Assembly: GCF_038025025.1 (NCBI RefSeq)
Contig: NW_027117347.1
Span: 1,612,001-1,676,000, forward strand
DNA: 64,000 bases
Direction: 5' to 3'
Origin: Phyllosticta citribraziliensis
Taxonomy: Eukaryota
Shown one piece after another: positions 13,276 through 54,296 of the stretch. Made by a program: the position numbers and the translations under genes. The notes under the pieces were generated by a model, which did no database searches, was not told the DNA's origin, and saw nothing but the letters and a program-made list of their open reading frames with translations. The first letter of the stretch is position 1, and every line of letters starts with the position of its first letter.

Positions 13276-16200
13276 ATGGGGCAGAAGAGGAATCTGGAGG
13301 TCGCGGCTCAGGATGCCTCGACCAGCGCGCAAAAGCGTCGCAGGCAATACACGGAGCAAGATGCCAAATTGGCGAGCATTTTCGACCGCCTGGCAGATGA
13401 AGCCAAGGAAACGCGACTTGCTGCTGCCAAAGAGCTTGTGCTCTTGCTCTCGGATGAAGCCACTGCAGACATTGCTAACAAGGTATTGACACGCCTGATT
13501 AGAGGTCTGTGTAGCCCGCGCAAAGCCGCCCGCTCTGGATTCTTCGTTGCCCTCTCCGAGACTTTGCGTCAGCTCTACGGCCCGTCGACAAAAGAAATTC
13601 CAGACTTTGAGCCAAATCTCCACGGTCTGGTGAAATTGGTGGCCGAGCTCACAACCGCCGAGGGCAAGACCAGTGGACAGGTCCGTACTCGCCTCTGATG
13701 GTCTGGAATCGAATACTGACTAGCAACAGGAGAAGAAAGACCACTTGCTTGGTCGCGTGTTCGGATACAAAGCCCTCATCCAGTCCTCCGTCCTCGTACA
13801 ACCCGCGGCGCCCAAAGAATGCTGGGCGAACGTCTTGGAAGAGCTCTACAAAATTTCGCAGCAAAAGTCATGGGTGCGAGAAGAATGCGCAATGATTTTC
13901 TTTGATGCCGTCAAGGCAATCCACGCTGAGAATGGGGAGGAGAAACTCGTGCGGCAGATTGTCGACGGACTTTGCACCCATGGCTTGGCAAAGACACCAG
14001 AGGGTGTTGCCATCTGGCTGACCGTGCAATCAACATTCCCAAAAATGGAGCTTCCCGAGGGCACATGGCACAAGCAGGATCCGCTCTGCACCAAGGAAAG
14101 GCAAACCCTGGCCAACGTGATGAAGGAGAACTTTGCCAAGACACAAGACACTGAAAGTGGAAAAAAGGTCAAGTCTGGAAGCTCGCAGACTACGCTCAGT
14201 TTTGCTTGGGAGGTCGTGATGGTGTCCTTCATGCAAAGACATGGCGCTGGAGAGTCAGGAGTGACTGAATTCTCAAAGTTCTGGACTGATATTGTAGACA
14301 GTAAGTCTGGCCCGCTTGGCTCCACGTGTGGATTGTTTCTAACATTGGACAGACAACCTATTCTCGGCATCGGCGTCTCCCGAGCAAAAATCCAAGGGGC
14401 TCCAGCTCTTTTCAAGAATGCTTGCCAGTGCTCCCCAGTGGGCACTGCTTCCCCTATTCTCCGCAAACCTTATGCGATGCATTATCAACCAACGGAATGG
14501 TTCGGACCGGTACCTACACAAAGCAGCAGTGACCCCCTTGGACGAGATGCGCGCCAGAGTCAAGAGGAATCCAGACGTTGCTGCCTCGATTGTCGAGGGT
14601 CTGATCACAAGACATGGATCGCTCAGCTTTGACAAAATCACAAAGACAAAGACTGTCGAGGGAGTGCTTGGCCACGCTAGTGGACCAGCACTCGAAGAAT
14701 TGGTCGTCTTCTTCGAGCGCCTAATCTACCGACCCAGCGACGGGGACGAAAAGGCGGTCGAGGCGTACCGCCGCACCATTTCTGATATGCTGGTATCATT
14801 GGTCAGAAGTCGGAACTTGGAAAACCAAATCGGGAAAGATGAATGGCTGCGAACGTTGCTTGACGTCTTCACCAGGCTCGCCTACTTTTCGCCCACTGGA
14901 TCTTCCAAGGCGCAAGATGTGCCAGTGCCATCCATCTCCGAGGCCTCTAGGACCATGTTCCAGCAACGCTTGTCTTCGTGTCTCGCGCATCTCCTCTCTT
15001 CAAAACTCGATACCGAGATGATATATCCAGTGTTGGTGGTGACTGCTATCCAGAACCACAGCGCGTCGGAGACTCTGTCTCTTGCTTTCAAGGCTGAAAA
15101 GAGTATTTCAAAGGCGGTGAAGCAGGCTCACAAGCTATTGAGTGAAGTCTCGACCAAGGTAAGCCGGCTCACGGCCACGCGTTGGAGCAATGCTAATTAT
15201 TCAACAGGAAGCCAAGGCAAAAGAGAAGAAGAAGCCAGCACTCAGAGCCTTCAAACTTCTCTTTTCACTCACCATTATCCAGGTGTACAATGGCGATGCC
15301 GATGCCGTTATGATCCTCGAAGAACTTTCCGAGTGCTACGGCGCGGCCTTCCAAAAAGGTGAAAAGGATGCCAATGCTTTCCAACTACTGACGGAAGTGA
15401 TTCTCGGCTTTGCCTCTAGACCTTCGGTGTTGTTTCGGAAGCTCGCTGAGCAAGTTTTCACTGTGTTTGCATCGGAGCTTACCCCTGAAGGCTTGCAATC
15501 GATGATTGAGATTTTGGAGAAGAAGGAGAGCGCGTCCGGGCAACAGGATTTGTTTGATCAGCAGGGCAGCGACGTGGAGGAAGAGGGCGAGGAAGATGAA
15601 GAGGATGAAGAGGTGGATTCGGATGTGGAGGTGGTGGACGCCGACGGGTCTGACGTGGAGATGGCCGAGAATGAGTCGGAAGACGCTGAATCAGGGGATG
15701 ATGAAGCTGGGGACGGAGACTCCGATGACGAGGAGCTCCAAAGGTTCGACGCCTTACTTGCCGACACGCTCAAGACGTCAGCCCCGAACGGCACAGGAGA
15801 GGACGAGAACAACTCGGACGACGATGACGCAGACATGGACGATGACGAAATGATGGCTCTCGAGCCCCACCTGACGAAGATCTTCCAAGAGCGGAAAAAA
15901 GAAAACAGCAAGAAGAAGGAAAACAAAGACGCAAAAGAAAACATGATCAACTTCAAAAACCGGGTCCTGGATCTGCTCTTCATCTACGTCAAACAGCAGC
16001 ACAGCAACCCGCTCGCCATGGACATCATCATGCCCTTGCTGCAGCTCATTCGCACCACGACCACGAAGCAAGTCAGCGAAAAGGCCGCCAACCTCCTCAA
16101 ACAGTACTTTGAGGTGGCAAAGAAGGGCATGCCAGAGCCAGCCGAGACGGCTCCTGTCTGGGCTTTGCTGAAGGATGTTCACGGCGAGGCGGCCAAGGAC

Positions 16201-16410
16201 GCCTCGAAGCTGTTTGCCGGAGCCTGTAGCCGGGCAAGTCTCTTCTTGGCCAAGATTCTGGTGACCAAGAAGGACAAGAACTTTAAGAAGGTGGTGGACG
16301 TGTACGCGGAGACTATGAAGCAGAGGCACGAGGATTCCAACTCGAAGCTTCATCCGTCCTTTTTCGTCGAGTGGGTCAACTGGAGCTTTGCGCCGAAGAA
16401 GCAAAAGTAG
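13276..16410 (+). CDS. POL5: DNA polymerase phi / rDNA transcription and ribosome biogenesis factor Pol5 (MYBBP1A family)
   Basis: LTRLIRGLCSPRKAARSGFFVALSE, GRVFGYKALIQS, an acidic tract, then MDDDEMMALEPHLTKIFQERK...NFKNRVLDLL. Introns at 13681-13729, 14301-14352 and 15159-15207. Confidence 0.92.
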
Positions 16411-16857: not shown

Positions 16858-19427
16858 ATGGCTTGTAAACACGTCGACGCCCCAGGTATTTGATCTCATC
16901 CCCACGCGCAGCTCACACGTTGACAATGGCCAGAGCTCCGGGCTCCGGGCCCAACCCAGTCTGTTTACCGCGAAGACTGCACGCAGTGCTTCGACTCGAT
17001 TGTGAGCCTGGCTTCACCTTGCCTCGCCGCCTTCGGCCTCGCGGCTAACGCGTCTGATTCAGGAGGATCCGAGCGGCCTCGACGTCTGCCTGTACTGCTT
17101 CAACGGCGGCTGCACTGCTGAGCGCAACCACGCCCTGCTCCACCACCAAACGCGCAAACACCCGCTCGTCGTCAACATCAAGCGCACGCGGAAGAAGGTC
17201 AAGCGCGATGAGCCCCCGCAGAAGATGTCCAAGCTCGCCATCGCCGCCGAGACGGAAGCCGATCGCTACGATACCACGACGCGGGTCAAGTGCTACGAAT
17301 GCGGCGTCGACGACGTGGACAAGACGGCGGGCAAGCTGCCGCAGGTGGTGGACGCGGTGCTCAAAGCAAATACGTTTGCGAGACAGGAGGAGGTCAAGGC
17401 TTGGGAGCAAGAGATGATTCCGTGTGAGCACACGCTGTGTCTGGAACAGGACGCGTCGAGGACGATTGCGAGCCAGGACCTGGGCCACTGCTCCATGTGC
17501 GATCTGAAGGAGAATCTCTGGCTCTGCCTGACTTGCGGCAACCTTGGATGTGGACGCGCACAATTTGGTGGCATTGGAGGAAACTCGCACGGCTTGGCTC
17601 ACACGGACTCCAGTGGCCATCCGGTAGCGGTCAAGCTTGGCTCCTTGACTGCTGACGGAACGGCTGACATTTACTGCTACGCGTGCAACGAGGAGCGCGT
17701 GGACCCTGAGCTGGTCTCCCACCTTGCAAATTGGGGTATCGACATTGCAAGTCGGCAGAAGACGGAAAAGAGCTTGACGGAGATGCAGATCGAGCAAAAC
17801 TTGAGGTGGGAGTTTTCCATGCAGACGGAGGATGGCAAGGAACTCAAGCCCTTGTTCGGACCCGGTTTCACTGGATTGAAGAACCTGGGCAACAGCTGCT
17901 ATCTGGCCAGCGTTCTGCAGGCCCTGTTCGCCATGCCCGAGTTCCAGCAGCGCTACTACCATCCCGACGAGCAGCCACCGCAGGCGGATGAGCCCGCACA
18001 GGACCTGGAGACGCAGCTGCGCAAGATGGCCGATGGACTGCTTTCTGGCCGCTACTCCAAGCCCGACAGCGACGTCATCGTATCAGAAAACACTCCCGAG
18101 GTTCCTCACCAAAAGGGTCTGGCACCGGCAATGCTGAAGCATTTGATTGGACGTGGACACGCCGAGTTTTCCACCATGAGGCAGCAGGACTCGTTTGAGC
18201 TTTTGCTCCACCTCCTCAAGCTCGTCACCCGGTCCCAGCATGTGGCTCCCCTCAAGGACCCCGTTGACGCGTTTCGGTTTGCCATGGAGCAGAGGTTACA
18301 GTGCATCAATTGCAAAAAGGTCAGCTACAGGACGGACGAAATGGAAAACATTTCTATCCCGGTACCCATCAGGAGAATACCCAAGGACGACAAGATGGAC
18401 ATTACGGATGCTGAAGGCAAGGAAAAGGCAAAGGAGGAGTTTGAGCCGGTCACTCTCAAGGAGTGTCTGGACATTTTCACTGCCGTCGAGGCTGTCGAGC
18501 TAACGTGCGCTGCCTGCGGCAGCAAAGACGGCTTCACAAAGCAGAGCCTGTTCAAGACTTTCCCCGACATCATGGCAGTCAATGCGCGCCGCTTCGAGCT
18601 TGTCAACTGGGTGCCGACTAAGCTCGACGTGCCCGTGGTCGTTGGCGACGAGGCCATCAACTTTGACTCGTACAAGTCTGGTGGACTGCGAGACGGAGAA
18701 GAGCTGTTGCCAGAGGACGCCGACACGGGGTCGTCGACCAAGTTTGTGCCCAACGAGACGGCGCTGGCCATGCTGGAAGCCATGGGATTCCCACGCGTCC
18801 GCTGCGAAAAGGCGCTGCACGCCACGGGCAACGCGGACCCCGAAGCGGCATCCAACTGGCTCTTTGGCCACATGGACGACCCAGACATTGACACGCCGGT
18901 CGACCTGGATGGCGGAAGCAGCGGAGGATCGGGGGCGGTGGACCCCGAGAAGATAGAATCGCTTGGAGCCATGGGCTTTGGGCCTCCGCAGGCGCGTCAA
19001 GCGCTCAAGGAGACGGGCGGCGACATGGAGCGCGCGGTGGACTGGCTCTTCAACCACCCGGAAGCGACGGGCGACTTTGGCGACGACGACGCGGGCGCTG
19101 ACGGTGGAGCTGCTGCTGCTGCGGCGGCGCCCAAGGAGAAGAGAGAGCCGGGCAGCGGGGCGCTGCCGGCCAACTTCCAGCTGCACAGCATTGTGTGTCA
19201 CAAAGGCAGCTCGATTCACGCGGGGTAGGTTCAGCCCCATGACGTTTGGGCGAGCAGGCGGGCACAGCTAACATTGTTGCAGGCACTACGTCGCGTTCAT
19301 TCGCAAGCAGATTCCAGGCGTCGACGAGACGTCTTGGGTCCTATTCAACGACGAAAAAGTAGCCCAGGCGGCTGATGTCGACGAGATGAAGAAGTTTGCA
19401 TACGTCTACTTTTTCCGCCGCGTTTGA
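16858..19427 (+). CDS. UBP14: Ubiquitin C-terminal hydrolase 14 (USP5/isopeptidase T orthologue)
   Basis: MACKHV start; VYREDCTQCFDS; ZnF-UBP LWLCLTCGNLGCGR; Cys box GLKNLGNSCYLAS; two UBA domains; His box HKGSSIHAGHYVAF; ends AYVYFFRRV*. Three GT-AG introns. Confidence 0.96.
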
Positions 19428-20076
19428 GGCGTAGGGTAGGGTAGGGGAGCGGGCAAGGAAAGGCGCAGATGGGCATTGGTGTGGGCGGGTGGGTGGGTGA
19501 GGCTAGCGTTAAAGCCGAAGGAGCATGGACTGGATGGACTGGATGGACTGCTGTTCGGGGTCGCGGTGTCGGGGTTTCGGACGTGAGGTGTCGCTTTGGT
19601 TGGCTGGTGGGTGCGAGATGCATGCTGAGAGTGCGGTCGACTCTCGATCGCAGGCAGGCGTTGGGCGAAGAGGTAGATGCACACGACGAGATCAATTCGA
19701 GTGGTTGACGACGGCGATTCCGCTTGATGGCCGCAATGGCTGGAGTAATTGCAGCGGTGCGATTTGGCAGGGCGTTGTGTTGAGGTCGAGTGTAGGTTGT
19801 GCACGTTCACAAGGTCGCCACCTGTGCAGGGGAGTGGCAGGCCGAAGTTATGACTTAATCGGCTTGGCCGAGACCGCCGCGCCGAGAGCCCGCCCGCCCG
19901 TCATCCTCTCAAATAATCAAAGGGCACAGCAGCACCTCTCTTCACACCTCAGTTCTCGACATCCGCTCAACGAACACTTCAACACGACAACACGACCTCA
20001 GCCTCTGCATCAACCAAACCACCTGCAATCGCCTCGTACACCCTACAGCAAACCCGTCGACACCTCCATCATCGTC

Positions 20077-21039
20077 ATGTTCAGAAGAGTCCTTGCGACC
20101 GCGCCTGCCTCGGCCGGCAAGCTCGTCGCCTCGGCCGCCAGACCTCAGATTGCCTCGCCGCTGCTGCAGCGGACAGGCGCCCCGGCCGTGGGCGGCGCTG
20201 TCGTCGCTCGCCGGAGCTACCACGAGAAAGATGAGTTGCCCTCCTGCTCCTCTTGATGCGACGCGGTCGCTGCGCTGGCTGCGTGGCGGGCGCCTCTGCA
20301 TCGCAGCGCTTTTGCCGAATCTTCGCCCCTCACGCACCTCACTCGCTCACACCCCTCTCTCCACACCCACCTTTGCACCATGCCGTTCCCCAGTTCCGCT
20401 CAGCAGCTAACAGCCTCAGCACTGCTCGACCACTACAACCGGCCGCGCAACGTGGGCAGCATGTCCAAGAACGACGGCGACGTGGGGACGGGCCTGGTGG
20501 GCGCGCCGGCCTGCGGCGACGTCATGAAGCTGCAGATCCGCGTCGACCCGGACTCCAACACCATCAGCGACGTCAAGTTCAAGACGTTTGGCTGCGGCTC
20601 CGCCATCGCCAGCTCCAGCTACCTGACCGAGCTCGTCCGCGGCATGACGCTCGAGCAGGCCGCCCGCATCAAGAACACCGAGATTGCGAAGGAGCTGTGC
20701 TTGCCGCCTGTTAAGCGTGAGTTTTTTCTCCCTCCTTTCTTTCCCTGTCCATCATCATCATCATCATCTTCTTCTTCTTCTTTTTCCGTTGTTCGTTTGT
20801 GCGCCGGTCGAGGGGCCGTCGTATCGCGAGGTCGTTCGGATTGCTGACATTCTTCGCCGCCAGTCCACTGCTCCATGCTCGCCGAAGACGCCATCAAGTC
20901 GGCCATCTCAAACTACTACACCAAGAACCCCAAGGCGCGCGCCACGGACCTCGGCGGCACCGGCGCACCGCTGCCCAAGGTCGAGATCGAGACCGTGACC
21001 GAGTCGCCCAAGGCGGCCACCGCTTCTGCCAATGCGTAA
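20077..21039 (+). CDS. ISU1: Mitochondrial iron-sulfur cluster scaffold protein IscU/Isu1
   Basis: Presequence MFRRVLATA...RRSYHEK, then VLDHYNRPRNVGS...GLVGAPACGDVMKLQI...KTFGCGSAIASSS...LPPVKLHCSMLAEDAIKSA. Intron 1 is AT-AC (20231-20422); intron 2 is GT-AG (about 20717-20863). Confidence 0.96.
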
Positions 21040-22233
21040 GCCAAGCAAAGCAAATCCGAAGGAAGAAAAAAACGAAAATCCCAGAAAAAAGGCGTGGCGG
21101 CCGTCGTCGATGAGCGCCGGCTGGGCTGAAGAGAAAATTGGTGGAGCGTCTGGAGGCGATGAGATCATGTTTCCCTATTCTTTCCCTTTTCTTCTCTAGG
21201 TCTTTTACCTCCTCTTTCCCCGCCGACGTAACCTGGGAAGACGCGCGAGCTTTGCGGCGGGCGAAGAGCGCAACGAACAGAGCGCACACACGAGCGAAAC
21301 ACTCGCTTTTGATTGTCGAAATCGGCCAATCGATCAACAGCGGCGGCGACAGTCCTGGCGGTAGACGATAACCTGGCACGCGTGGCCGTCGACGCCCTTC
21401 TCTCTTCTTCCCCCCTTTTCTCCTTGTACCACCAACCACTACAGTAGTCACCCTAGGCGTTCATCCTGTGTTTGCTTTTCCTCCTTTTCCTCTGCCGTTC
21501 GTGGGTTTTTGCTTTCGGCGCCTACCTATTCCTTTTTCCTGGATTTTTGACGGCCGACTGGCTCGTGGCGTGCAGGCGCTGGAGCGACGGCGGCGGCGGC
21601 GGCGGTGGTGGTAGTGGTGCGCATCGTCGCACATTCGGCCAGTTGAGCAGCAGACGCGTTCTGCGCTGAATGAACGCACGAAAGGAGGGATAGATGGAAC
21701 CGTTCGAATGACGCGTTCGGGGGAGTATATGGGACGGTCGGACGGTTGGATGGCTGGCTACCTCTCTACCTAGGTGCCCTGTCTGTCTGCCTTTTTTCGC
21801 CATGCAATGAAGAAAGTTATAAACCGTCATGTACGCAGCTGCAGTCTGAGCCGCGCGTGGGTGTGTGAAATGACCGTGACCAAAATTCTGCCCAAAGTGT
21901 AGCCCCACGACGATGGCGTGAGTGAGTGATTGAGTGGGTGGATGGATGACTGAGCGAAAACCAAAACAGCAGCAGCAGGATCGCGGGACGGGCAGGCGGG
22001 CAACCGGCACATTTATACGGACGGACGGACAGGGAGATGAGGCGAGGCAAGGCGAAGCAGGAGCATGCGTGGCACCATGGGACAATAGGTAGGTATTCTA
22101 GGCACGGCAGGACTACCACCAGCACCAGCTGAGCATCACGCCACCAGCAGCAATCCACCAAGGTAACTGATCAGAACACGCCGGAGAGTCAGGCAGGCAG
22201 GCAGGCAGACAGGCGCAGGGCGGTAAGGCCAAC

Positions 22234-22315
22234 ATCTGATAAATGTGGTATCTGATGGAGGGGTACTGTAGCTGTAAGGTTTAAGGGGGCGGGCGGGGGG
22301 CTAAGGTTATCTGAT
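22234..22315. promoter_or_regulatory. Cluster of three SreA/Urbs1/Fep1-type GATA motifs (ATCWGATAA)
   Basis: ATCTGATAA at 22234-22242; TATCTGAT at 22249-22256 (ATCAGATA on minus); TTATCTGAT at 22307-22315 (ATCAGATAA on minus). Confidence 0.6.
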
Positions 22316-23486
22316 GCTGGTGGGCTGTGGAGTACCTACTCTGTTATATAGAGACGGGGGTATCTTTTTTTCGTTTCTCCATGACTTCCTTCACATTTTC
22401 TCCCTGCCATCTTTTCTCACGCCCTACCTATACCCATACCTATACCCTTGCCCATATTCCCATACTCGATGCTCTCCCTCCTCTCTCCTCACCTCCCTTA
22501 TCCCCCCATCCCCCATCCCCCATCCCCCCACCTCATCATCATCATCATCCCAACCCTTCCAAGAAAAACTCACCGCACGCCTGCCCGCCGATCACCCCTC
22601 CCCTCACCCAATCACGCCGCACCCATTATACCACTCGCGCGCGCGGCCGCCAGCTCACCGCCTACAGAGTCATGCAGCGGGCGCCGGTGTCGCTGCCTGC
22701 CGCCGTCGCACGTGCGTAGAATTCTTACCTTGTGTAAGGTACTATGCAGTCTTCTTGTGCAGCGCGGCATAAAAAAGCTTGGTTCGGCTTCGGCCGCTCG
22801 GCGGGGATTTCTTTTTACCTCTGTAGTTGTGTGGATTGAAATTGTGACTTGTGCGCGGCCGGGGCTACCTACCTTGGAGAGTAGTGGTGAGTAGTGGTGA
22901 GTACCTACATACCTGGCAGAGTGGCAAGGTGGAGAGGGAGCCAGGTGTGTACGCATGCCAAGGGCGTGGGTAAGAGAGAGATAGATGGTAGGGGTGAATA
23001 GAGGGGTTTGAAGTAGGTTTGAGTGGGCATCGAGGTGGAGGGGATAGAGGTGGCCAAGGCAAGGCAAGGTAAGGACGGAAGGAAATGTCGGGTCAGGCTA
23101 GATTGGCCGTGGGGTGCTTGTATACCTAGGAGCAAGAGAGATGTATATATTTATATACATGTGGGTAGAAAGTGGTGGTGATGGCACCTCTTATCTACAT
23201 TGCCTGCTTCTCGGCTGTCTCTGTAGCTAACGAGCAGTACTCAAGTATTTGCATTGTGTCTGTTGTTTAGACAAGAGTTGCAGTGTCTACTCGCATAAAT
23301 CTTCGTTCATGCATGGCGCGGACTGAGGCCAATCTTGTTTGATTCATTTGATGCTTTTTCAAATTCTCGCCGTCACACGAAGATAAAAGTACTGGTCATA
23401 ATGAGAAAAATGGGAAACTGCACGCTCAAATGCTCACACGGTGCTCGCGCCCAGGAATGGAAAATTCGATAGGGAAGAACTCAAGA

Positions 23487-24599
23487 CTACCGCTTCAGCG
23501 CCGCAAACCTCCTCGCCAACTCATCGACGTCGGGAATCTTACCGCCAGGCCCATCATCCGCCTTTTTGCTCTTTCTAGCCTCGTCGCCCGCCTCCTCGAG
23601 TTTCTTGGCCGCGCGGCTGGCGCCGCCCGACGGCGCGCGCTTCAGCTCCGGCGGGCCCGGCAGCTTGACCTTGGGCGCGACGTTCTCGGAGCTGGGGCTG
23701 GGCGGCGCGACGCGCAGCGGGCTGGCGGGGCCCAGCTTCTTGGGCGGCGTCGCTTTGGCCAGGTCTTCCGTCTCGAGCGGCGCCTCGAGTACCTTTTGCT
23801 TGTGGCCGTCGGACGGCTCGTCGTCGTCGTTGTCGTCGTTGTCGTCGGCCCCGTTCTGCGTCTCGTCCTCGTCCTCGTCGAACCCCGGTATACTGACGCC
23901 GTAGGCGCGCGCTATCTCACGCATGTACGCGTCGACCAGCTCGTCCGACGGCGTCTCGACGCGCAACTTCTTCAGCACGCGCTCTGCGACCCCTGTGCCC
24001 TCCATCGCGCTGAGCGCAAAGTCCTTGCCGAACTTGTCGACCAAGAGAGCGCGCGCGGCGTGCAGCTCTTTGACTTCGGTCCGCGGTGCGGCGTAGATGA
24101 GCGAGCGGACGGCTTCTTCGAGGCCCGGGTCGCAGGTGGAGGACGAGGACGAGCTGGACGGACGCAGCGACGGCGAGGCGTTGGCGGGCGGGTCGAGCAG
24201 CTGGGACCGCGCGAGCAGCAGCTCGCAGTACAGTTCGAGGATTTCGTGCAGTTCGGTGGTTATGTCGCTGCGGATGATGTTTTCGATGCGGATTCGCGCG
24301 CTTTCGAGTTTGCCTTGCTGGGTCGGATTAGTTGGGTTGCCTGTGTTGCGGTGGATGGCTGCTTTTTCGGCCAGAATTCCTGATAGTTCAGGCGGGCAAG
24401 GGACAGACGGACTTCAAGGAGTTGGGCCATGGCACGGCGTGATTGTTTTGCGAGGGCAATGTCTTTTTGTTGCACCATGCGGAGTCGGGATATTGAGAGC
24501 TTCAGCTGGACTTTGAGCTTGGACTGCGTCGGTCGTCAGCGACGTGCAGGAGTCGGATTGGAGGTAAGTACTTGCAACAAGGGACGAGGGAGGAGCCAT
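23487..24599 (-). CDS. IST1: ESCRT-III-associated vacuolar sorting protein Ist1 (DUF292)
   Basis: MAPPSSLV|SKLKVQLKLSISRLRMVQQK...LLE|QGKLESARIRIENIIRSD...ELHEILELYCELLLAR...LEEAVRSLIYAAPRTEVKEL; C-terminal MIM-like PDVDELARRFAALKR*. Intron 1 is GC-AG. Confidence 0.92.
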
Positions 24600-49211: not shown

Positions 49212-52180
49212 TCAAAAACCCTGCCCGCCCCCACACCAACACCTCTCAGCGCCCTCGCCCTCCTTCTCCACATGCACGAGCACCGAATCGAGTTTGCGCT
49301 CGCGCAGAAAAGCCTCGGTGCGTTGTTGCACGTCTGCCGCGTCGGCCGAGCGCGCCGCGACGACGTGCATGACGCCGAGGATCTTTTGGGATACGGCGTG
49401 GTCGTGGGAGTGATCGTGAGAGTGGGAATGAGCATGGGAGGGGGAGTGCGAGTGTGAGTGAGAGGGAGAGTGTGAGTGCGAGTGGGAATGGCCGTGGTGG
49501 TCGTGCGAGTGCGACGGCGTGTGCGAGTGCGAGTGACCGTGGCCGTGGTCCGAACAGTTGGAGACATTGGAGTGGCTATGAGCGTGGCCATGGTCGTGAT
49601 TGTTCGTATGAGCGTGCGGATGGTCATGGCCGTGGTCGTGGTCGTGGCAACCGTCCTCGTCATGTCCATGGCCGCGCTCATGCGCCGCGCCCATATCCTC
49701 GAGCCAGAAACGCGGTGCCGAATAGGACACGACGCCACGAATAGAGTTGATGTCCCTCAGCGTGTCCTTGAGCTGGTCCTCGACTTCCTGCGGGTTGCAG
49801 AGCAGCAGCCTCATGCCGGCATTGTAGGTGAGCGGCAGCGCGCTGAAGAAGATGAGCAGCGCGATGATGCACGACGCCAGCGGATCCCAGCCGTTCCAGC
49901 CGTTCCACTTGGTCAGCAGGGTGCTGATGATGACGGCGACGGAGCCGAGCGCGTCGGCCAGGATGTGCAGGAAGATGCCGTGCATATTCTCGTCTCCGTG
50001 GTGGTGATCGTGGCCGCCATGCCCGTGGGCATGTGCGTGGCCCATGGCGAAGAGACCGACAAAGTTGATGAGGAGCCCCAGAATGCTGACAATGAGCAAC
50101 TCGTCCAATCGGCGTAGCTCATGGCCTTCCCAGAGTCGCTCAAAAGCGTCCAGGATGATCTCGAAACTAACAAGACTGCGATTGTTAGCGGCGATCAAGT
50201 CGACTGTCCGCGGAACTTACATGAGAAAGATGCCGTTTCCAAAACCCGACAGCGTGTCCACTTTGCCGTAGCCGTATGGGAATCGAGCGCTTGCAGGCCA
50301 TTTGCTCATTACTGCTGCAATCAGGCCGACTGCCAGCCCTGCGCAATCGAAAAACATGTGGATGCTGTCTGTGAGGAGACCCAGCGAACCTGTCACGAAT
50401 CCGTAGAATGCTTGGACGAGCATGAATCCCATGTTGAGACTGGAGCCATTAGCAACGCTCTCGACTGGGAAGTAGGTTGACTTACCAACCAAAGTATGCA
50501 ATCCGCCGCGAGTCCTTTTCGACGAGAATGCTGTGAAGTAGCGAGCCAGGCTCACATTGCTTGAGAAGAATCCCAGTCAACCTAGAATGCTTGTCGTGCG
50601 CATGAGGCCCATGGTGGTGATGGTGGTGGTGCGAATGAGAAAGGTCCAAATTCAACCCCTTTTCAAACCGAGTGACGCCATATGTTAGGAGCAGGAAGCC
50701 TAGCTCCACCGCCTGCGCCATCCAAGAGTCAAAGTGATTGAGGAACCCACTGATTGCGCCAACTGCGCAACCCGCGGCGACGCCGGCCTTTTGCGTAGAC
50801 CGAAGGGCTGAAGGCTTGCCGAAAGAGTAAAAGCCAGCAGCAGCAAGGGAAACGGCCAAAGAGCAAAAGACTGTCGAGCTTGTGAAGGAAAGGTTGCCTG
50901 TAATGTTGGACGCCACAAACGTAAGAGCAAACAAGATTGCTCCTGAAATCAGTGTCGTGTTCACATCTTCAGGGGACGCCACCAGTGTGGATGCAGTGAC
51001 TTGAGGGAGATGGTAGACGGCAGCTGCCTTCTCTGGGCTTTCAACGACGGGAGAAAGGCCATTTGCAATGCCCGAGTTTAGAGTAGTTTGGGGCGGAGCA
51101 GAGACACTCCAAGTGATTGGGAGCGGAGGTGGAAAGACCAATATCGACACGGCGAGCGCAAGGTAGCCCGTAATGACCTGGATCAGACCAGTAGAAGCAC
51201 CAAATCCTAGAGCATCGCATAGGAAGCCTAGCACAAGGTAGCCCACAAGTAACCTCTTGTCACTCACGAGCCAACGCAAAGCCGTCAAAGGCCTACGTCT
51301 TGGAGTCTCTGCGGCACAGAGTTCAGATGTAATGGCAGCCAGCAACACTGCTCCTGTCCTGACACCACCAAGCTGTGCAGCGGCATAGAAGGGCAGTCCT
51401 ACACCCAAGACTCGGGATGCGACCTGCTGCAATCGACCCCGACTGCCGTCTTTGCCCACACGCCCCGAGCCACCAAAATTCTTTCGCCTGTCCAAAACTT
51501 GTGCGGAAGGTCTTGATCTGGAGAGGAGCGCTGTGAGGATGAGCGTGCCCGAAGCAAGGGCGCACGCCTGAAGAATGGCTGGAGCGCGAGACGGCAACGG
51601 ATTTGCAGCTGGGGCATCTTCGGAAACCGCTGCCCTTAAACGGTCGGAGGGAGATTCGGCGTGGGTATCATTTGTAGGGTGTGAACATGGCGCGCCAAAG
51701 GCCAGGGGAGCCAGGATGTAGGGAAGCGGTATCAGCAAGCCGGTCAGGACTTGGCGCCAGCTATCATCGGGCCTGTTCAGAGTTAGCGAAAGTAGATGTG
51801 TGCGCATGCTGATACACTGACAATGGGTCTGTCTGGTGGGGAAACCCATAGTCGTCGGCTGGGCGCGTCCTATGGGGAGAAGCAGGACGACCAAGGTCCG
51901 ACTCGCCGCGCGGCCGGAGCTTCGGACGGCCCATGGGAGGCGCGAGACGTGTGGTGTCGAGCGGGTCGAGGGGTTGTGGAGGGCCGTCTTCGTAGAGCGG
52001 CGAGGGAGGATTTAAAGAGCCGTGAGAGCGCGCCTTCTTCAAAGCACCAGGGCCGCTCTCGTTGGTGATGGGCCTCGACGACGCAGGGCGTTCGGGAAGT
52101 AGAGAGTGGCTGTAGTGATGGGCATGGCGGGGGAAATTGTCCAGCGGAAGGGCGAAGGTTTGGCTGTGGGCGGAGGCCAT
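49212..52180 (-). CDS. Cation diffusion facilitator zinc transporter, Msc2/Cis4/ZnT5-7-like, with very His-rich C-terminal region
   Basis: EKDSRRIAYF, GSLGLLTDSIHMFFDC, FPYGYGKVDTLSGFGNGIFL, NMHGIFLHILADALGSVAV, WDPLASC; long hydrophobic N-terminal region. Three GT-AG introns. Confidence 0.9.
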
Positions 52181-52784
52181 GCGAAGGACGGCGCGAGCAA
52201 CGAGCAACGTGGGCGAGTTGGAGGAGAGCGAGGTTGGTGGTGATGGGAATATAGGTTGTAGCCAGTGCAGCTGATAACTCGACCTGAGTGCGGACGGACT
52301 GCGGAGAAGCAACCAACGTCAGGGCCCTCGGGCGCTCAGATCAGAGGGCGGGCCTGGGGATTAGTGGGCAGGGTTGGTCACCGAGAGCAGAAACCATTGT
52401 GATATGTAGATACAGACTGACTGCAGTCGAGTCGGGCTGCCAGGTGTTGCAGCACCAGGGGGGTGAAACGCGTCTCGCGGCCCTGGCCTGCCTGTCACCC
52501 GTGGCTCGACCCGTGGTTCCCGCTGCTAGTACAACTCTGCAACTCCACGGCAGACACCGCTTTCGTCGACGCCAACACCATGGTGGTCGGCGATACCGCA
52601 TAGCGACCACGGCTGGCCCACTCCATGTCTCTCGCTCCCTTTCTCATTGGCTGCGCGACTTGACCCCGTTTTTTGACAGCCGCCAGCCATCACGTGTCCT
52701 CTACTCTACCGTACGGCACTCCCTCCGGCCCTTGTCGTATACCATCAATCCGGTCCTTCCGATCATCTCTTTTCCCATCCATCC

Positions 52785-54296
52785 ATGGACTGGCTAATTG
52801 CTCTCCTTGGCGTCTTTGTGCTTGCCGTCGTGTCCCTGCTCCTGCTGCAGCCGACTCGCTACTCTGCCGCCAAAAATGACACCAAAAGAATCCAAATCGT
52901 TGTCCTTGGAGACATTGGCCGTAGCCCGCGCATGCAGTATCATGCCATGAGTCTGGCCAGACTCGGCTACGCTGTTGACATCATTGGCTACAAAGGTCTG
53001 CACCTTCGCCTTTGTATGATGGCTTGGAAGCTAAAACAGAATCCAGAATCTGATATTCACCCGGCACTGGACTCAGACAAAAGGGTCCACATAGTCCCAA
53101 TTCCGCCATGGCCCAGAAAGTGGCAAACCGACGACCGGAGGTTGTTTGTTCTCATGGCTCCCCTGAAAGTCATTTGGCAGACGTGGGGTCTGTTTGCGGC
53201 CATGTCGTATGAGACACGTCCGGCGCGATTTGTGTTGGTACAGGTAATACCTCTTCAATCTTGCTCTCGCATTGCTGTCGAGGAGACAAAAAGGGAACAG
53301 TACCCCTGATGCCCCCTGCCAAGCTGTCCCCATGACAATTCCAGGGCTGACACTATCCAGAATCCACCGTCGATCCCGACTCTGCTTGTCGCCCGAGTCG
53401 CCTGTATTCTCCGGAACACTGCATTCTGCATTGACTGGCACAATTTTGGCCACTCAATTCTTGCCCTGAAACTTGGACAATCGCACCCGCTGGTCCGCAT
53501 CTCGCAGTTTTACGAGTACGCCGTCACCAAAGATGCTCCCATCAACTTCACCGTCACGGCCGCCATGGCGCGTGTACTCCGGGAAAAACATGGTCGCACC
53601 GGTGTGATCCCGCTTTATGACCGTCCGCCAGCACACTTTCAGCCTTGTGCTTCTGCTACTGCCCGAAGAGAAGGGTTTCTTTCCCTTGCCAGGCAGCAGA
53701 ATTGGCCAATCGACTTTCCATCCTCCACGCCCCCAAAAGTCATTGTTTCTTCCACAAGCTGGACTCCTGACGAGGACTTTTCGCTGCTACTTAGTGCCCT
53801 TTCTTCCTACAGCACCACGGCCAAAACCACGTCCCTCCCACCCGTCATTGCAATCATTACCGGGAAAGGTCCTCAAAAAGACCTCTACCGTGACAAAATC
53901 GCAAAGATGGAAAAGGATGGCCAACTCTCGCACGTCCGCATCCTTACTGCTTGGCTTTCGATCGAAGACTACGCAAGCCTCCTCTCATATGCTGACCTGG
54001 GTGTATCATTGCACACGAGTAGCTCTGGTGTTGACTTGCCGATGAAAGTGGTCGACATGTTTGGTGCAGGGCTGCCCGTAGCGGGATGGGACCGCTTCGA
54101 GGCATGGAGTGAGCTCGTGGAGGAAGGTGTCAACGGGAGGGGCTTTGGAAGTGCAGAAGCACTGGGAGAACTGTTGGCGAAGTTGATGAGTGATGATGGA
54201 AAGCAGCTGCAAAGGCTGAGAGAGGGTGCTGAGAAGGAAACGCAGCGCAGGTGGGATGAGGAGTGGGATGAGAAGGCTGGTAGGATCTTTGGATGA
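52785..54296 (+). CDS. ALG1: Chitobiosyldiphosphodolichol beta-1,4-mannosyltransferase
   Basis: N-terminal TM segment, VVLGDIGRSPRMQYHA, VQ|NPPSIPTL, IDWHNFG, LYDRP, SSTSWTPDEDF, SLHTSSSGVDLPMKVVDMFG. Two introns. Confidence 0.96.

Follow-up and report, generated by a model that had tools for sequence, protein, structure and literature searches.

An abundant RNA and a cluster of candidate iron-responsive GATA boxes in the convergent spacer downstream of ISU1 in Phyllosticta citribraziliensis

Introduction

Iron economy in fungi is explained by a repressor of the SreA/Fep1 type and by HapX/Php4, and in budding yeast also by mRNA decay. In bacteria, the Fur-repressed small RNA RyhB acts on the isc mRNA. 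The first-pass annotation of the DNA described here named ATCWGATAA as the extended site of the fungal repressors SreA, Urbs1 and Fep1, in agreement with the available part of PMC2610380, where this sequence is over-represented in SreA-regulated promoters and fits the in vivo sites of the orthologues of U. maydis and S. pombe. In the portion of PMC1929147 at hand, isu1 of S. pombe is a target of Fep1p that is induced in low iron, and this regulation is conserved in budding yeast (ISU1-2). Excerpts of PMC13729207 place isu1+ among the iron-responsive loci, a set enriched for elevated Fep1 occupancy in iron-replete cells, and describe transcriptional interference by lncRNAs in the nutrient homeostasis of S. 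pombe at prt/pho1, pho84 and tgp1. Searching the literature by title and abstract, we found among the matches listed neither an iron- or ISU1-linked counterpart of these phosphate lncRNAs nor a GATA-repressed antisense RNA at ISU1.

Here we analyzed a stretch of 64,000 nucleotides (the window) in which boxes of this extended type lie downstream of ISU1. The spacer that holds them had been proposed to give rise to an RNA that is derepressed in low iron, runs antisense toward ISU1 and may be coupled to the slow AT-AC intron. If true, an antisense RNA on ISU1 controlled by an iron repressor would be a new regulatory layer and a eukaryotic parallel to the Fur-RyhB-isc circuit.

Results

ISU1 and IST1 converge on a spacer of 2,446 nt

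20077-21040, plus strand: coding sequence of ISU1, an IscU-type Fe-S scaffold, with three exons (20077-20230, 20423-20716 and 20864-21040)
23487-24317, minus strand: last exon of IST1, with its stop codon at 23487-23489 (Pfam Ist1, E 3.9e-43; X1 RNA contig)

The spliced translation of ISU1 is an open protein of 207 aa whose exon 2 matches Pfam NifU_N (E 1.3e-38), and both introns appear as joints in RNA contigs, those of run X1 skipping the two with 0 mismatch. The convergence of ISU1 and IST1 on a spacer of about 2.4 kb was confirmed, as both genes carry their Pfam domains and the spacer that begins after the ISU1 stop (end at 21040) measures 2,446 nt. Among the 34 reading frames of the window that we scanned, ISU1 was the sole iron-regulon gene recognized.

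RNA continues from ISU1 into the spacer

Contigs of RNA from four of 12 listed runs (X1, X3, X4 and X8) were compared; the RNA of X1 comes from the organism of the window itself. These contigs are strandless, and their depth is a poor measure of RNA level. Along the spacer they define the following intervals:

21041-21934, probably plus strand (strandless contigs): transcribed stretch of 894 nt right after the ISU1 stop (X1, X3 and X4 contigs)
21935-22219, strand not applicable: interval between two transcribed blocks, with no X1 contig; such a hole proves nothing and 22180-22219 is a skipped repeat, so that no weight was given to how sharp the edge at 21934 is
22220-22554, strandless: very low RNA contig over the GATA boxes (X1 record 5, depth 9.3, 0 mismatch)
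22702-23456, strandless: moderate RNA contig beside IST1 (X1 record 6, depth 161 vs 3,669 for the IST1 contig, record 7, 23458-24317)

The spliced ISU1 exons had X1 depths of 8,389 and 8,844, and the contigs that lead from the last exon into the spacer had depths of 8,844 (20864-21073), 11,907 (21044-21272), 12,942 (around 21310) and 9,464 (21347-21934). Relative to the ISU1 exons the spacer reached 1.1-1.5 fold in X1 and 0.35-1.2 fold in X4, as far as contig depth can tell. Cover in X1 was unbroken from the last ISU1 exon into the spacer by way of overlapping contigs (records 2, 3 and 4 and the contig around 21310). In X3, one contig (record 9) joined 20423-20716 to 20864-21574 with 0 mismatch, and in X4, records 17-20 extended to 21824 in the same layout as in X1, with depths of 8, 5.8, 7.2, 2.7 and 2.8. 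Although X3 and X4 carry the labels of other organisms, their low-depth contigs are identical to the window, and the independence of the two runs is uncertain.

Run X8, which is true RNA-seq, contained an ISU1 contig of a close relative with 4 differences over the 294-nt exon 2. This contig ran about 300 nt past the stop, where it carried numerous substitutions and, at 21096-21310, indels of 1, 4, 1 and 6 nt, the pattern expected of a non-coding tail. The contigs of the relative stopped short of the GATA boxes.

Beside IST1, the contig at 22702-23456 showed neither splicing nor a credible ORF and is probably read-through from IST1 or a long 3' form of its mRNA. Pieces of X4 and X8 at 22352-22645 were set aside, since their long unlike ends give them the appearance of low-complexity matches from other organisms. 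Adapter-like loose ends of X1 contigs (20122, 21073 and 21272) were too few and too short to give the strand, and none of the X1 loose ends listed carried a poly(A) tail.

The transcribed stretch is neither coding nor structured

The first-pass annotation saw no convincing ORF in the spacer, and searches with eight spacer ORFs against Pfam, for relatives and in a collection of 15 billion proteins bore this out: seven of the eight had no Pfam match at E <= 0.1, and none of the eight occurred in the collection. The ORF that did match Pfam, of 102 aa on the minus strand, did so twice but weakly (E 0.013 and 0.058), falling well short of the curated cut-offs, and had no relatives among the lengths of 56-179 residues searched. 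Lacking a reliable family match, relatives or a record, a hidden protein gene in the spacer was rejected. A search of 20900-23600 against Rfam, with E allowed up to 1, returned no RyhB-type family and only two sub-threshold chance matches, located elsewhere in the spacer. Folding of 21041-21934 gave z scores of +2.4 on the plus and +4.5 on the minus strand, both worse than all 20 shuffles, and a structured RNA was likewise rejected for want of excess structure on either strand. The stretch also contained no ARE or Puf3-type motifs, whose copies in the spacer were confined to 23142-23199. A scan for promoters and terminators of bacterial type was discounted as not applicable to a fungus.

Signals at the edge of the RNA fit an end as well as a start

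21810-21901, plus strand: polyadenylation-type motifs (motif scan), AAGAAA at 21810, TATAAA at 21818 and TGTA at 21830 and 21898
21944-21953, minus strand: initiator-like TCAGTCATCC, 10-19 nt beyond the edge of RNA cover at 21934
22011-22017, minus strand: TATAAAT, 77 nt from the edge of cover, with TCAGTCATCC 58 nt further on
22345-22640, plus strand: TATATA (22345-22350) followed by a pyrimidine-rich tract

The motifs of 21810-21901 lie 36-124 nt before the edge of cover at 21934, are the only plus-strand copies in the distal part of the stretch and are taken by us as 3'-end signals from what is generally known of fungal poly(A) sites. Depth similar to that of ISU1, contigs joined to its spliced exons and motifs of the poly(A) type together favor a sense 3'UTR over an antisense RNA; being strandless, the contigs themselves fit either. 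Against the 3'UTR reading, the edge at 21934, 77 nt below TATAAAT, fits the start of an RNA as well as an end. For a filamentous fungus, a 3'UTR of 894 nt is long.

The minus-strand TATAAAT and the pyrimidine-rich stretch near 21950 that had been noticed in the spacer are both present, the latter as TCAGTCATCC. TATAWA occurs elsewhere in the spacer at 21818, 22345 and 23144-23157, so that a single TATAAAT is weak evidence by itself. A transcript starting near 21950 had been predicted. The stretch expected to be transcribed is indeed covered by RNA, the edge of which at 21934 is no more than about 20 nt away from that start, but a sense 3'UTR of ISU1 is the better reading of this RNA.

The composition of the spacer flips just right of the boxes, at about 22340, as at a divergent promoter: pyrimidines make up 31-39% of the plus strand (61-69% of the minus strand) at 21940-22340 vs 65-82% of the plus strand at 22340-22640. 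Closer to ISU1, at 21060-21200, a short A-rich sequence is followed by a T-rich one, an arrangement that could, judged by sequence, be a terminator shared by ISU1 and a convergent minus-strand RNA.

Three GATA boxes cluster 3' of both genes

22234-22242, plus strand: GATA box 1, full 9-mer ATCWGATAA, ATCTGATAA (pattern scan)
22248-22256, minus strand: GATA box 2, ATCAGATAC, matching ATCWGATAA at 8/9 positions, with the 8-mer ATCAGATA(C) at 22249-22256
22307-22315, minus strand: GATA box 3, full 9-mer ATCWGATAA, ATCAGATAA

The three ATCWGATA(A) motifs reported within 82 bp are there (22234-22315) as two full 9-mers and one 8/9 match, with box 2 in the opposite orientation to box 1 and 5 nt separating these two boxes. 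With the 64-kb window as the background, the 8-mer ATCWGATA occurred 4 times vs 1.08 expected (at least 4 in 4 of 100 shuffles), the fourth copy lying at 53048. The 9-mer occurred twice vs 0.36 expected, both times in the spacer, in accordance with what the first-pass annotation had judged by eye. In 300 simulations of the window by a first-order Markov model, three sites never fell within 100 bp, and a Poisson estimate for such triples came to about 6e-6 per 64 kb and about 4e-3 per 40 Mb. Plain HGATAR was without enrichment in the window (66 vs 70.9 expected). A 21-nt unit (family D8) recurs at boxes 2 and 3 with 16/21 positions identical, and the two sites may therefore not be fully independent. 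As a sequence feature, the cluster is real and non-random, and it fits the published extended site of SreA, Fep1 and Urbs1.

The cluster is some 1.2 kb past the stop codon of ISU1 and lies downstream of both ISU1 and IST1, not in the 5' region of either. In the 848 nt upstream of ISU1 (19229-20076), we found no HGATAR and no ATCWGATAA even at 1 mismatch. With boxes 3' of both genes and none upstream of ISU1, an effect on ISU1 would have to be exerted from its 3' side, an uncommon arrangement in fungi, whose regulators seldom act downstream of genes.

Searching metagenomes with the last exon of IST1 yielded eight loci at 48-89% identity, the closest of which (L008) ends inside IST1. Three of them (L004, L005 and L006) extend 4.6-6 kb downstream of IST1. 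Neither ISU1 exon 2 (tblastn) nor the box cluster was found in any of the eight, and single 8-mers occurred twice in about 49.5 kb. The absence of ISU1 exon 2 from all eight indicates that synteny is not kept at this distance.

Discussion

We favor, at about an even chance, a reading in which the stretch from 21041 to about 21934 is the 3'UTR of ISU1 and the three boxes form a genuine SreA/Fep1-type cluster of the ISU1 locus. The ISU1 promoter would drive a plus-strand mRNA with an 894-nt 3'UTR that ends near 21934, at a putative poly(A) site following the motifs of 21810-21901. The minus-strand TATAAAT and its initiator would lie just past the end of this mRNA and need not be used. At a distance of 300 nt past this end, between the 3' ends of the convergent genes, the three boxes would stand in sequence with very low RNA cover or none, and would most likely serve as a binding cluster for an iron-responsive GATA repressor of the SreA/Fep1 type, with a presumed effect on ISU1.

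The original proposal reads the same signals from the other strand: a minus-strand ncRNA would start at about 21935-21953 from the TATAAAT, be gated by SreA and run antisense toward or into ISU1, being either the abundant RNA of 21044-21934 itself or an RNA made only in starvation that overlaps the ISU1 3'UTR. The layout speaks for it, given that boxes 220-300 nt upstream, a TATA element, a pyrimidine-rich leader (on the minus strand, as noted above) and the edge of cover 77 nt from TATAAAT follow each other in the order of a promoter, that the first AUG (21830) opens only the orphan 102-aa frame, and that A-rich and then U-rich elements of the minus strand at 21200-21060 may end such an RNA beside a short ISU1 3'UTR. 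On the other hand, an independent RNA would have to match the depth of ISU1 within 1.5 fold in X1 and about 3 fold in X4, on a measure as poor as contig depth, and a SreA-repressed RNA is expected to be low if the cells were iron-replete, whereas the observed RNA ranks with the most abundant ones here. The RNA moreover has no Rfam match and no stable structure. An iron-sparing role also conflicts with the low-iron induction of S. pombe isu1 and budding-yeast ISU1/2, and the premise that ISU1 is lowered in starvation is contradicted in these two yeasts, in which it was measured, as far as the available part of PMC1929147 goes. Of the proposal, the box cluster and transcription of the predicted stretch held, while the antisense identity, in view of the depth, the joined contigs and the plus-strand motifs, and the low-iron premise did not; we regard control of ISU1 by such an antisense RNA as unlikely and the RNA as most likely an ordinary, if long, 3'UTR. 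A related arrangement would turn the center of the spacer into a cryptic bidirectional promoter gated by SreA, from which low iron would release a minus-strand RNA from about 21935-21953 through the ISU1 3'UTR and perhaps a plus-strand partner into the 3' end of IST1. If the runs came from iron-replete cultures, such an RNA would not show; this, too, we hold to be improbable.

Two further explanations leave ISU1 without an antisense RNA. The boxes together with TATATA at 22345 may instead direct an iron-repressed plus-strand ncRNA from about 22380, antisense into the 3' end of IST1 and not ISU1. TATATA does lie 30 nt right of box 3 and precedes the pyrimidine-rich tract, and X1 contigs cover 22220-22554 (very low) and 22702-23456 (moderate). 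However, the very low contig starts at or left of 22220 and includes the boxes and the TATA element, instead of beginning to their right. Depth does not increase until 22702, which is 350 nt from the TATA element, the leftward fall from IST1 (3,669 to 161 to 9) fits read-through equally well, and no ORF or family was found. We consider this explanation highly improbable. It is possible, though doubtful, that the boxes, lying beyond an RNA that is still the ISU1 3'UTR, are without iron function, having arisen by local duplication, as the relic of a lost promoter or as sites of another GATA factor such as a nitrogen regulator. The 21-nt unit shared by boxes 2 and 3 is what a small duplication would leave, the position downstream of both genes is one where fungal regulators seldom act, an RNA contig of depth 9.3 crosses the boxes, and box conservation was not found in the eight metagenome IST1 loci, the closest of which ends too early. 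Cores of the HGATAR type are moreover common to all fungal GATA factors, according to the accessible portion of PMC2610380. Yet two perfect 9-mers and one 8/9 match in 82 bp are far above what base composition predicts, the inversion of box 1 keeps a simple tandem duplication from explaining all three, and the sole such cluster in 64 kb adjoins the one recognized iron-regulon gene.

What remains of interest on the favored reading, a sense 3'UTR followed by an iron-type cluster, is that striking boxes lie 3' of the orthologue of a fission-yeast Fep1 target whose own promoter here is without them. Should the boxes prove bound and conserved, they would exemplify iron control from a 3' position in a filamentous fungus and offer a simple locus in which to test the action of a repressor at a distance.

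Compared with known systems, the locus resembles RyhB in the proposed logic only, that of an RNA under an iron repressor acting on the mRNA for Fe-S assembly. There is no relation in sequence or structure, and the RNA here, about 0.9 kb long, unstructured and as abundant as ISU1, would be a cis-acting antisense RNA and not one that acts in trans. Eukaryotic precedents, as far as the available part of PMC1929147 describes them, favor induction of ISU1 in low iron. The phosphate lncRNAs of S. pombe offer a precedent for non-coding transcription in cis in fungal nutrient regulons but, in the excerpts of PMC13729207, are phosphate-responsive and lie upstream of the target genes in tandem orientation.

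The RNA shares with the long 3'UTRs of convergent fungal genes its continuous cover, its equal depth, the A-rich and TGTA motifs before its end and, in the relative seen in X8, the character of non-coding and fast-evolving sequence. At about 894 nt it is at the high end for such 3'UTRs, and it differs in ending right beside a promoter-like patch, in which each strand has TATA motifs and an iron-type GATA cluster is present. Although the sites described here are candidates by sequence and lie in a convergent spacer, about 1.2 kb 3' of where ISU1 stops, they are like those of the Fep1, SreA and Urbs1 regulons in having the same extended palindromic GATA site in several copies with an ISU1 orthologue alongside.

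RNA cover of ISU1 and the convergent spacer

The window is fungal nuclear DNA in which ISU1, encoding an IscU/ISU1-type Fe-S scaffold, and IST1 converge, leaving 2,446 nt of spacer between them. The joined ISU1 exons form an open 207-aa protein with NifU_N in exon 2 (1.3e-38, Pfam), and IST1 matches Pfam Ist1 at 3.9e-43. RNA contigs, which carry no strand, were examined from 4 of the 12 runs found: X1, from the same organism; X3 and X4, labelled as other organisms; and X8, recorded as RNA-seq, which contains a close relative whose exon 2 shows 4 differences over 294 nt.

Genes and X1 contigs across the spacer
20077-20230, 20423-20716, 20864-21040, plus: ISU1 exons
20864-21073: contig, depth 8,844
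21044-21272: contig, depth 11,907
~21310: contig, depth 12,942
21347-21934: contig, depth 9,464
21935-22219: gap between contigs
22220-22554: contig over the ATCWGATA(A) boxes, depth 9.3
22702-23456: contig, depth 161
23458-24317: contig, IST1, depth 3,669
23487-23489, minus: IST1 stop

The X1 contigs match without mismatch and skip both ISU1 introns. The first intron (20231-20422, 192 nt) has AT..AC ends, begins ATGAGT and carries a CTAAC branch-like motif 13 nt upstream of its 3' end; exactly this interval is skipped in X1 (depth 8,389), in X4 (8) and in the relative in X8 (223.6), showing that the AT-AC intron is real, spliced and present in the close relative too. The second, with GT..AG ends, is skipped from 20716 to 20864 in X1 at depth 7,250. 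X3 and X4 also hold diverged ISU1 homologues, and their spliced contigs identical to window 20000-21824 (depth 3-11) may reflect mixed samples or carry-over, so that they are not safely independent support.

On the IST1 side, a 95-nt GT..AG intron lies at 24318-24412 (minus), where the X1 contig stops at 24317 and its loose letters rematch the window from 24413. A one-base break in X1 cover at 23456-23458, only 30 nt beyond the IST1 stop, coincides with a drop in depth from 3,669 to 161, and minus-strand TGTA/TATAAA motifs fit for a 3' end occur at 23142-23199, ~300 nt beyond this drop. The leftward fall from IST1 to the contig over the boxes (3,669, 161, 9) fits fading IST1 read-through and fits weak plus-strand transcription equally well. 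Elsewhere, a DNA polymerase phi (Pol5-type) gene (13724-16407, plus) occupies three open frames that overlap (13724-14629, 14343-15359, 15163-16407), presumably exons parted by short introns.

Sense 3'UTR versus antisense RNA

The first-pass annotation had proposed a minus-strand promoter in the spacer, for a candidate antisense or non-coding RNA aimed at ISU1. Its TATAAAT and pyrimidine-rich initiator-like stretch are indeed there, and the sequence to their left is very strongly covered in X1, with the edge of cover at 21934, 10-19 nt from the predicted initiator.

Promoter-like features in the spacer
21944-21953, minus: initiator-like TCAGTCATCC
22011-22017, minus: TATAAAT
22345-22350, plus: TATA motif (motif scan)

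Pyrimidines make up 61-69% of the minus strand over 21940-22340; on the plus strand they account for 31-39% left of ~22340 and 65-82% over 22340-22640. TATA motifs point outward from either side of this flip, which gives the region the appearance of a divergent promoter with its centre slightly right of the boxes, in a spacer expected to need none.

Since the contigs are strandless, sense and antisense were judged by weight of evidence, not proof. A minus-strand start near 21934 would agree with the 77 nt between TATAAAT and the edge and with the pyrimidine flip, and an A-rich then T-rich tract at 21060-21200 could terminate both ISU1 and a convergent RNA. Such an RNA would, however, have to match by chance the abundance of ISU1, among the strongest-expressed genes of the stretch, and if repressed by SreA, a fungal iron-responsive GATA repressor, it should be low in ordinary cultures; we therefore regard an abundant antisense RNA as improbable. 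The RNA at 21044-21934 is real, and most likely it is the sense ISU1 3'UTR, the remaining probability going to other layouts. Relative to the ISU1 exons, spacer depth differs by 1.1-1.5 fold in X1 and by no more than ~3 fold in X4, whose low-depth contigs extend to 21824, and a single X3 contig runs from exon 2 through exon 3 into the spacer as far as 21574 without mismatch. A sense 3'UTR is further favoured by the non-coding, fast-evolving sequence past the stop, where the relative's contig extends ~300 nt and is densely substituted, with indels of 1, 4, 1 and 6 nt, and by the only plus-strand AAGAAA (21810), TATAAA (21818) and TGTA (21830, 21898) of the distal part, 36-124 nt upstream of the edge. 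An antisense RNA made only in starvation and overlapping the ISU1 3'UTR may exist and would be invisible in these runs.

The earlier reading that no convincing protein ORF is present held up: seven of eight spacer ORFs had no Pfam match, the eighth had two weak ones far below curated cut-offs, and none of the eight was in the protein collection; the 102-aa minus-strand ORF opened by the first AUG downstream of the proposed start had no relatives. Scanned against Rfam (E up to 1), 20900-23600 gave just two sub-threshold matches, and on both strands the transcribed stretch folded worse than 20 of 20 shuffles.

A cluster of extended GATA sites 3' of ISU1

A pattern scan recovered all three proposed SreA-type motifs.

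Boxes in the spacer
22234-22242, plus: box 1, ATCTGATAA
22249-22256, minus: box 2, ATCAGATA then C
22307-22315, minus: box 3, ATCAGATAA

The window holds four ATCWGATA sites (1.08 expected) and two ATCWGATAA sites (0.36 expected), both in the spacer, consistent with the first reading by eye, which spotted no 9-mer elsewhere. Plain HGATAR is at background (66 versus 70.9 expected), so the extended site rather than the core stands out. No triple within 100 bp arose in 300 Markov simulations, and a Poisson estimate is ~4e-3 such triples per 40 Mb; a 21-nt unit common to boxes 2 and 3 (16/21 positions identical) slightly lowers their independence. The assignment to the SreA/Urbs1/Fep1 type is sound by the consensus in Schrettl et al. 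2008 (PMC2610380), who find a 5.4-fold over-representation of ATCWGATAA in the upstream regions of 49 genes putatively regulated by SreA; sites used in vivo by the orthologues from U. maydis and S. pombe fit it as well. Cluster statistics and the neighbouring ISU1 together make a real, putative binding cluster for an iron GATA repressor the somewhat favoured reading. Its output may be 3'-side control of ISU1; alternatively, it may gate a cryptic promoter in either direction.

Among 24 long reading frames in the window, the sole other metal-related gene by Pfam is of the cation-efflux (CDF) family (49212-50213, minus, 3.7e-21). It lies ~2-3 kb from a one-mismatch 9-mer at 52269-52277 and from 53048-53055, the only other exact ATCTGATA in the window, inside the open frame of a neighbouring gene. 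In a metagenome scan, 0 of 8 IST1 loci at 48-89% identity had ISU1 or a box cluster nearby.

ISU1 and iron in other fungi

Part of the original interpretation stands: the RNA exists, as do the boxes, for which a link to iron is plausible. An antisense regulator is unlikely, the RNA most probably being the ISU1 3'UTR. None of the papers listed in literature searches concerned, judging by title and abstract, an iron-GATA-controlled antisense at ISU1. The premise of lower ISU1 expression under iron starvation is opposite to what the two yeasts studied show in Rustici et al. 2007 (PMC1929147), where eight new Fep1p targets include S. pombe isu1, a member of a nine-gene core regulated in the same way as the budding-yeast iron regulon. 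A 2026 paper (PMC13729207) counts isu1+ among the iron-responsive loci, within a set in which loci with elevated Fep1 occupancy are enriched when iron is replete. An SreA/Fep1-type repressor has therefore been tied to ISU1 before, the sign being repression in high iron and induction in low iron. A low-iron antisense lowering ISU1 would oppose that sign, and the iron-sparing logic would thus conflict with isu1 behaviour in yeasts. The unusual feature here is the position of the boxes, ~1.2 kb beyond the ISU1 stop codon with none upstream, where 848 nt (19229-20076) hold zero HGATAR and zero 9-mers even with one mismatch.
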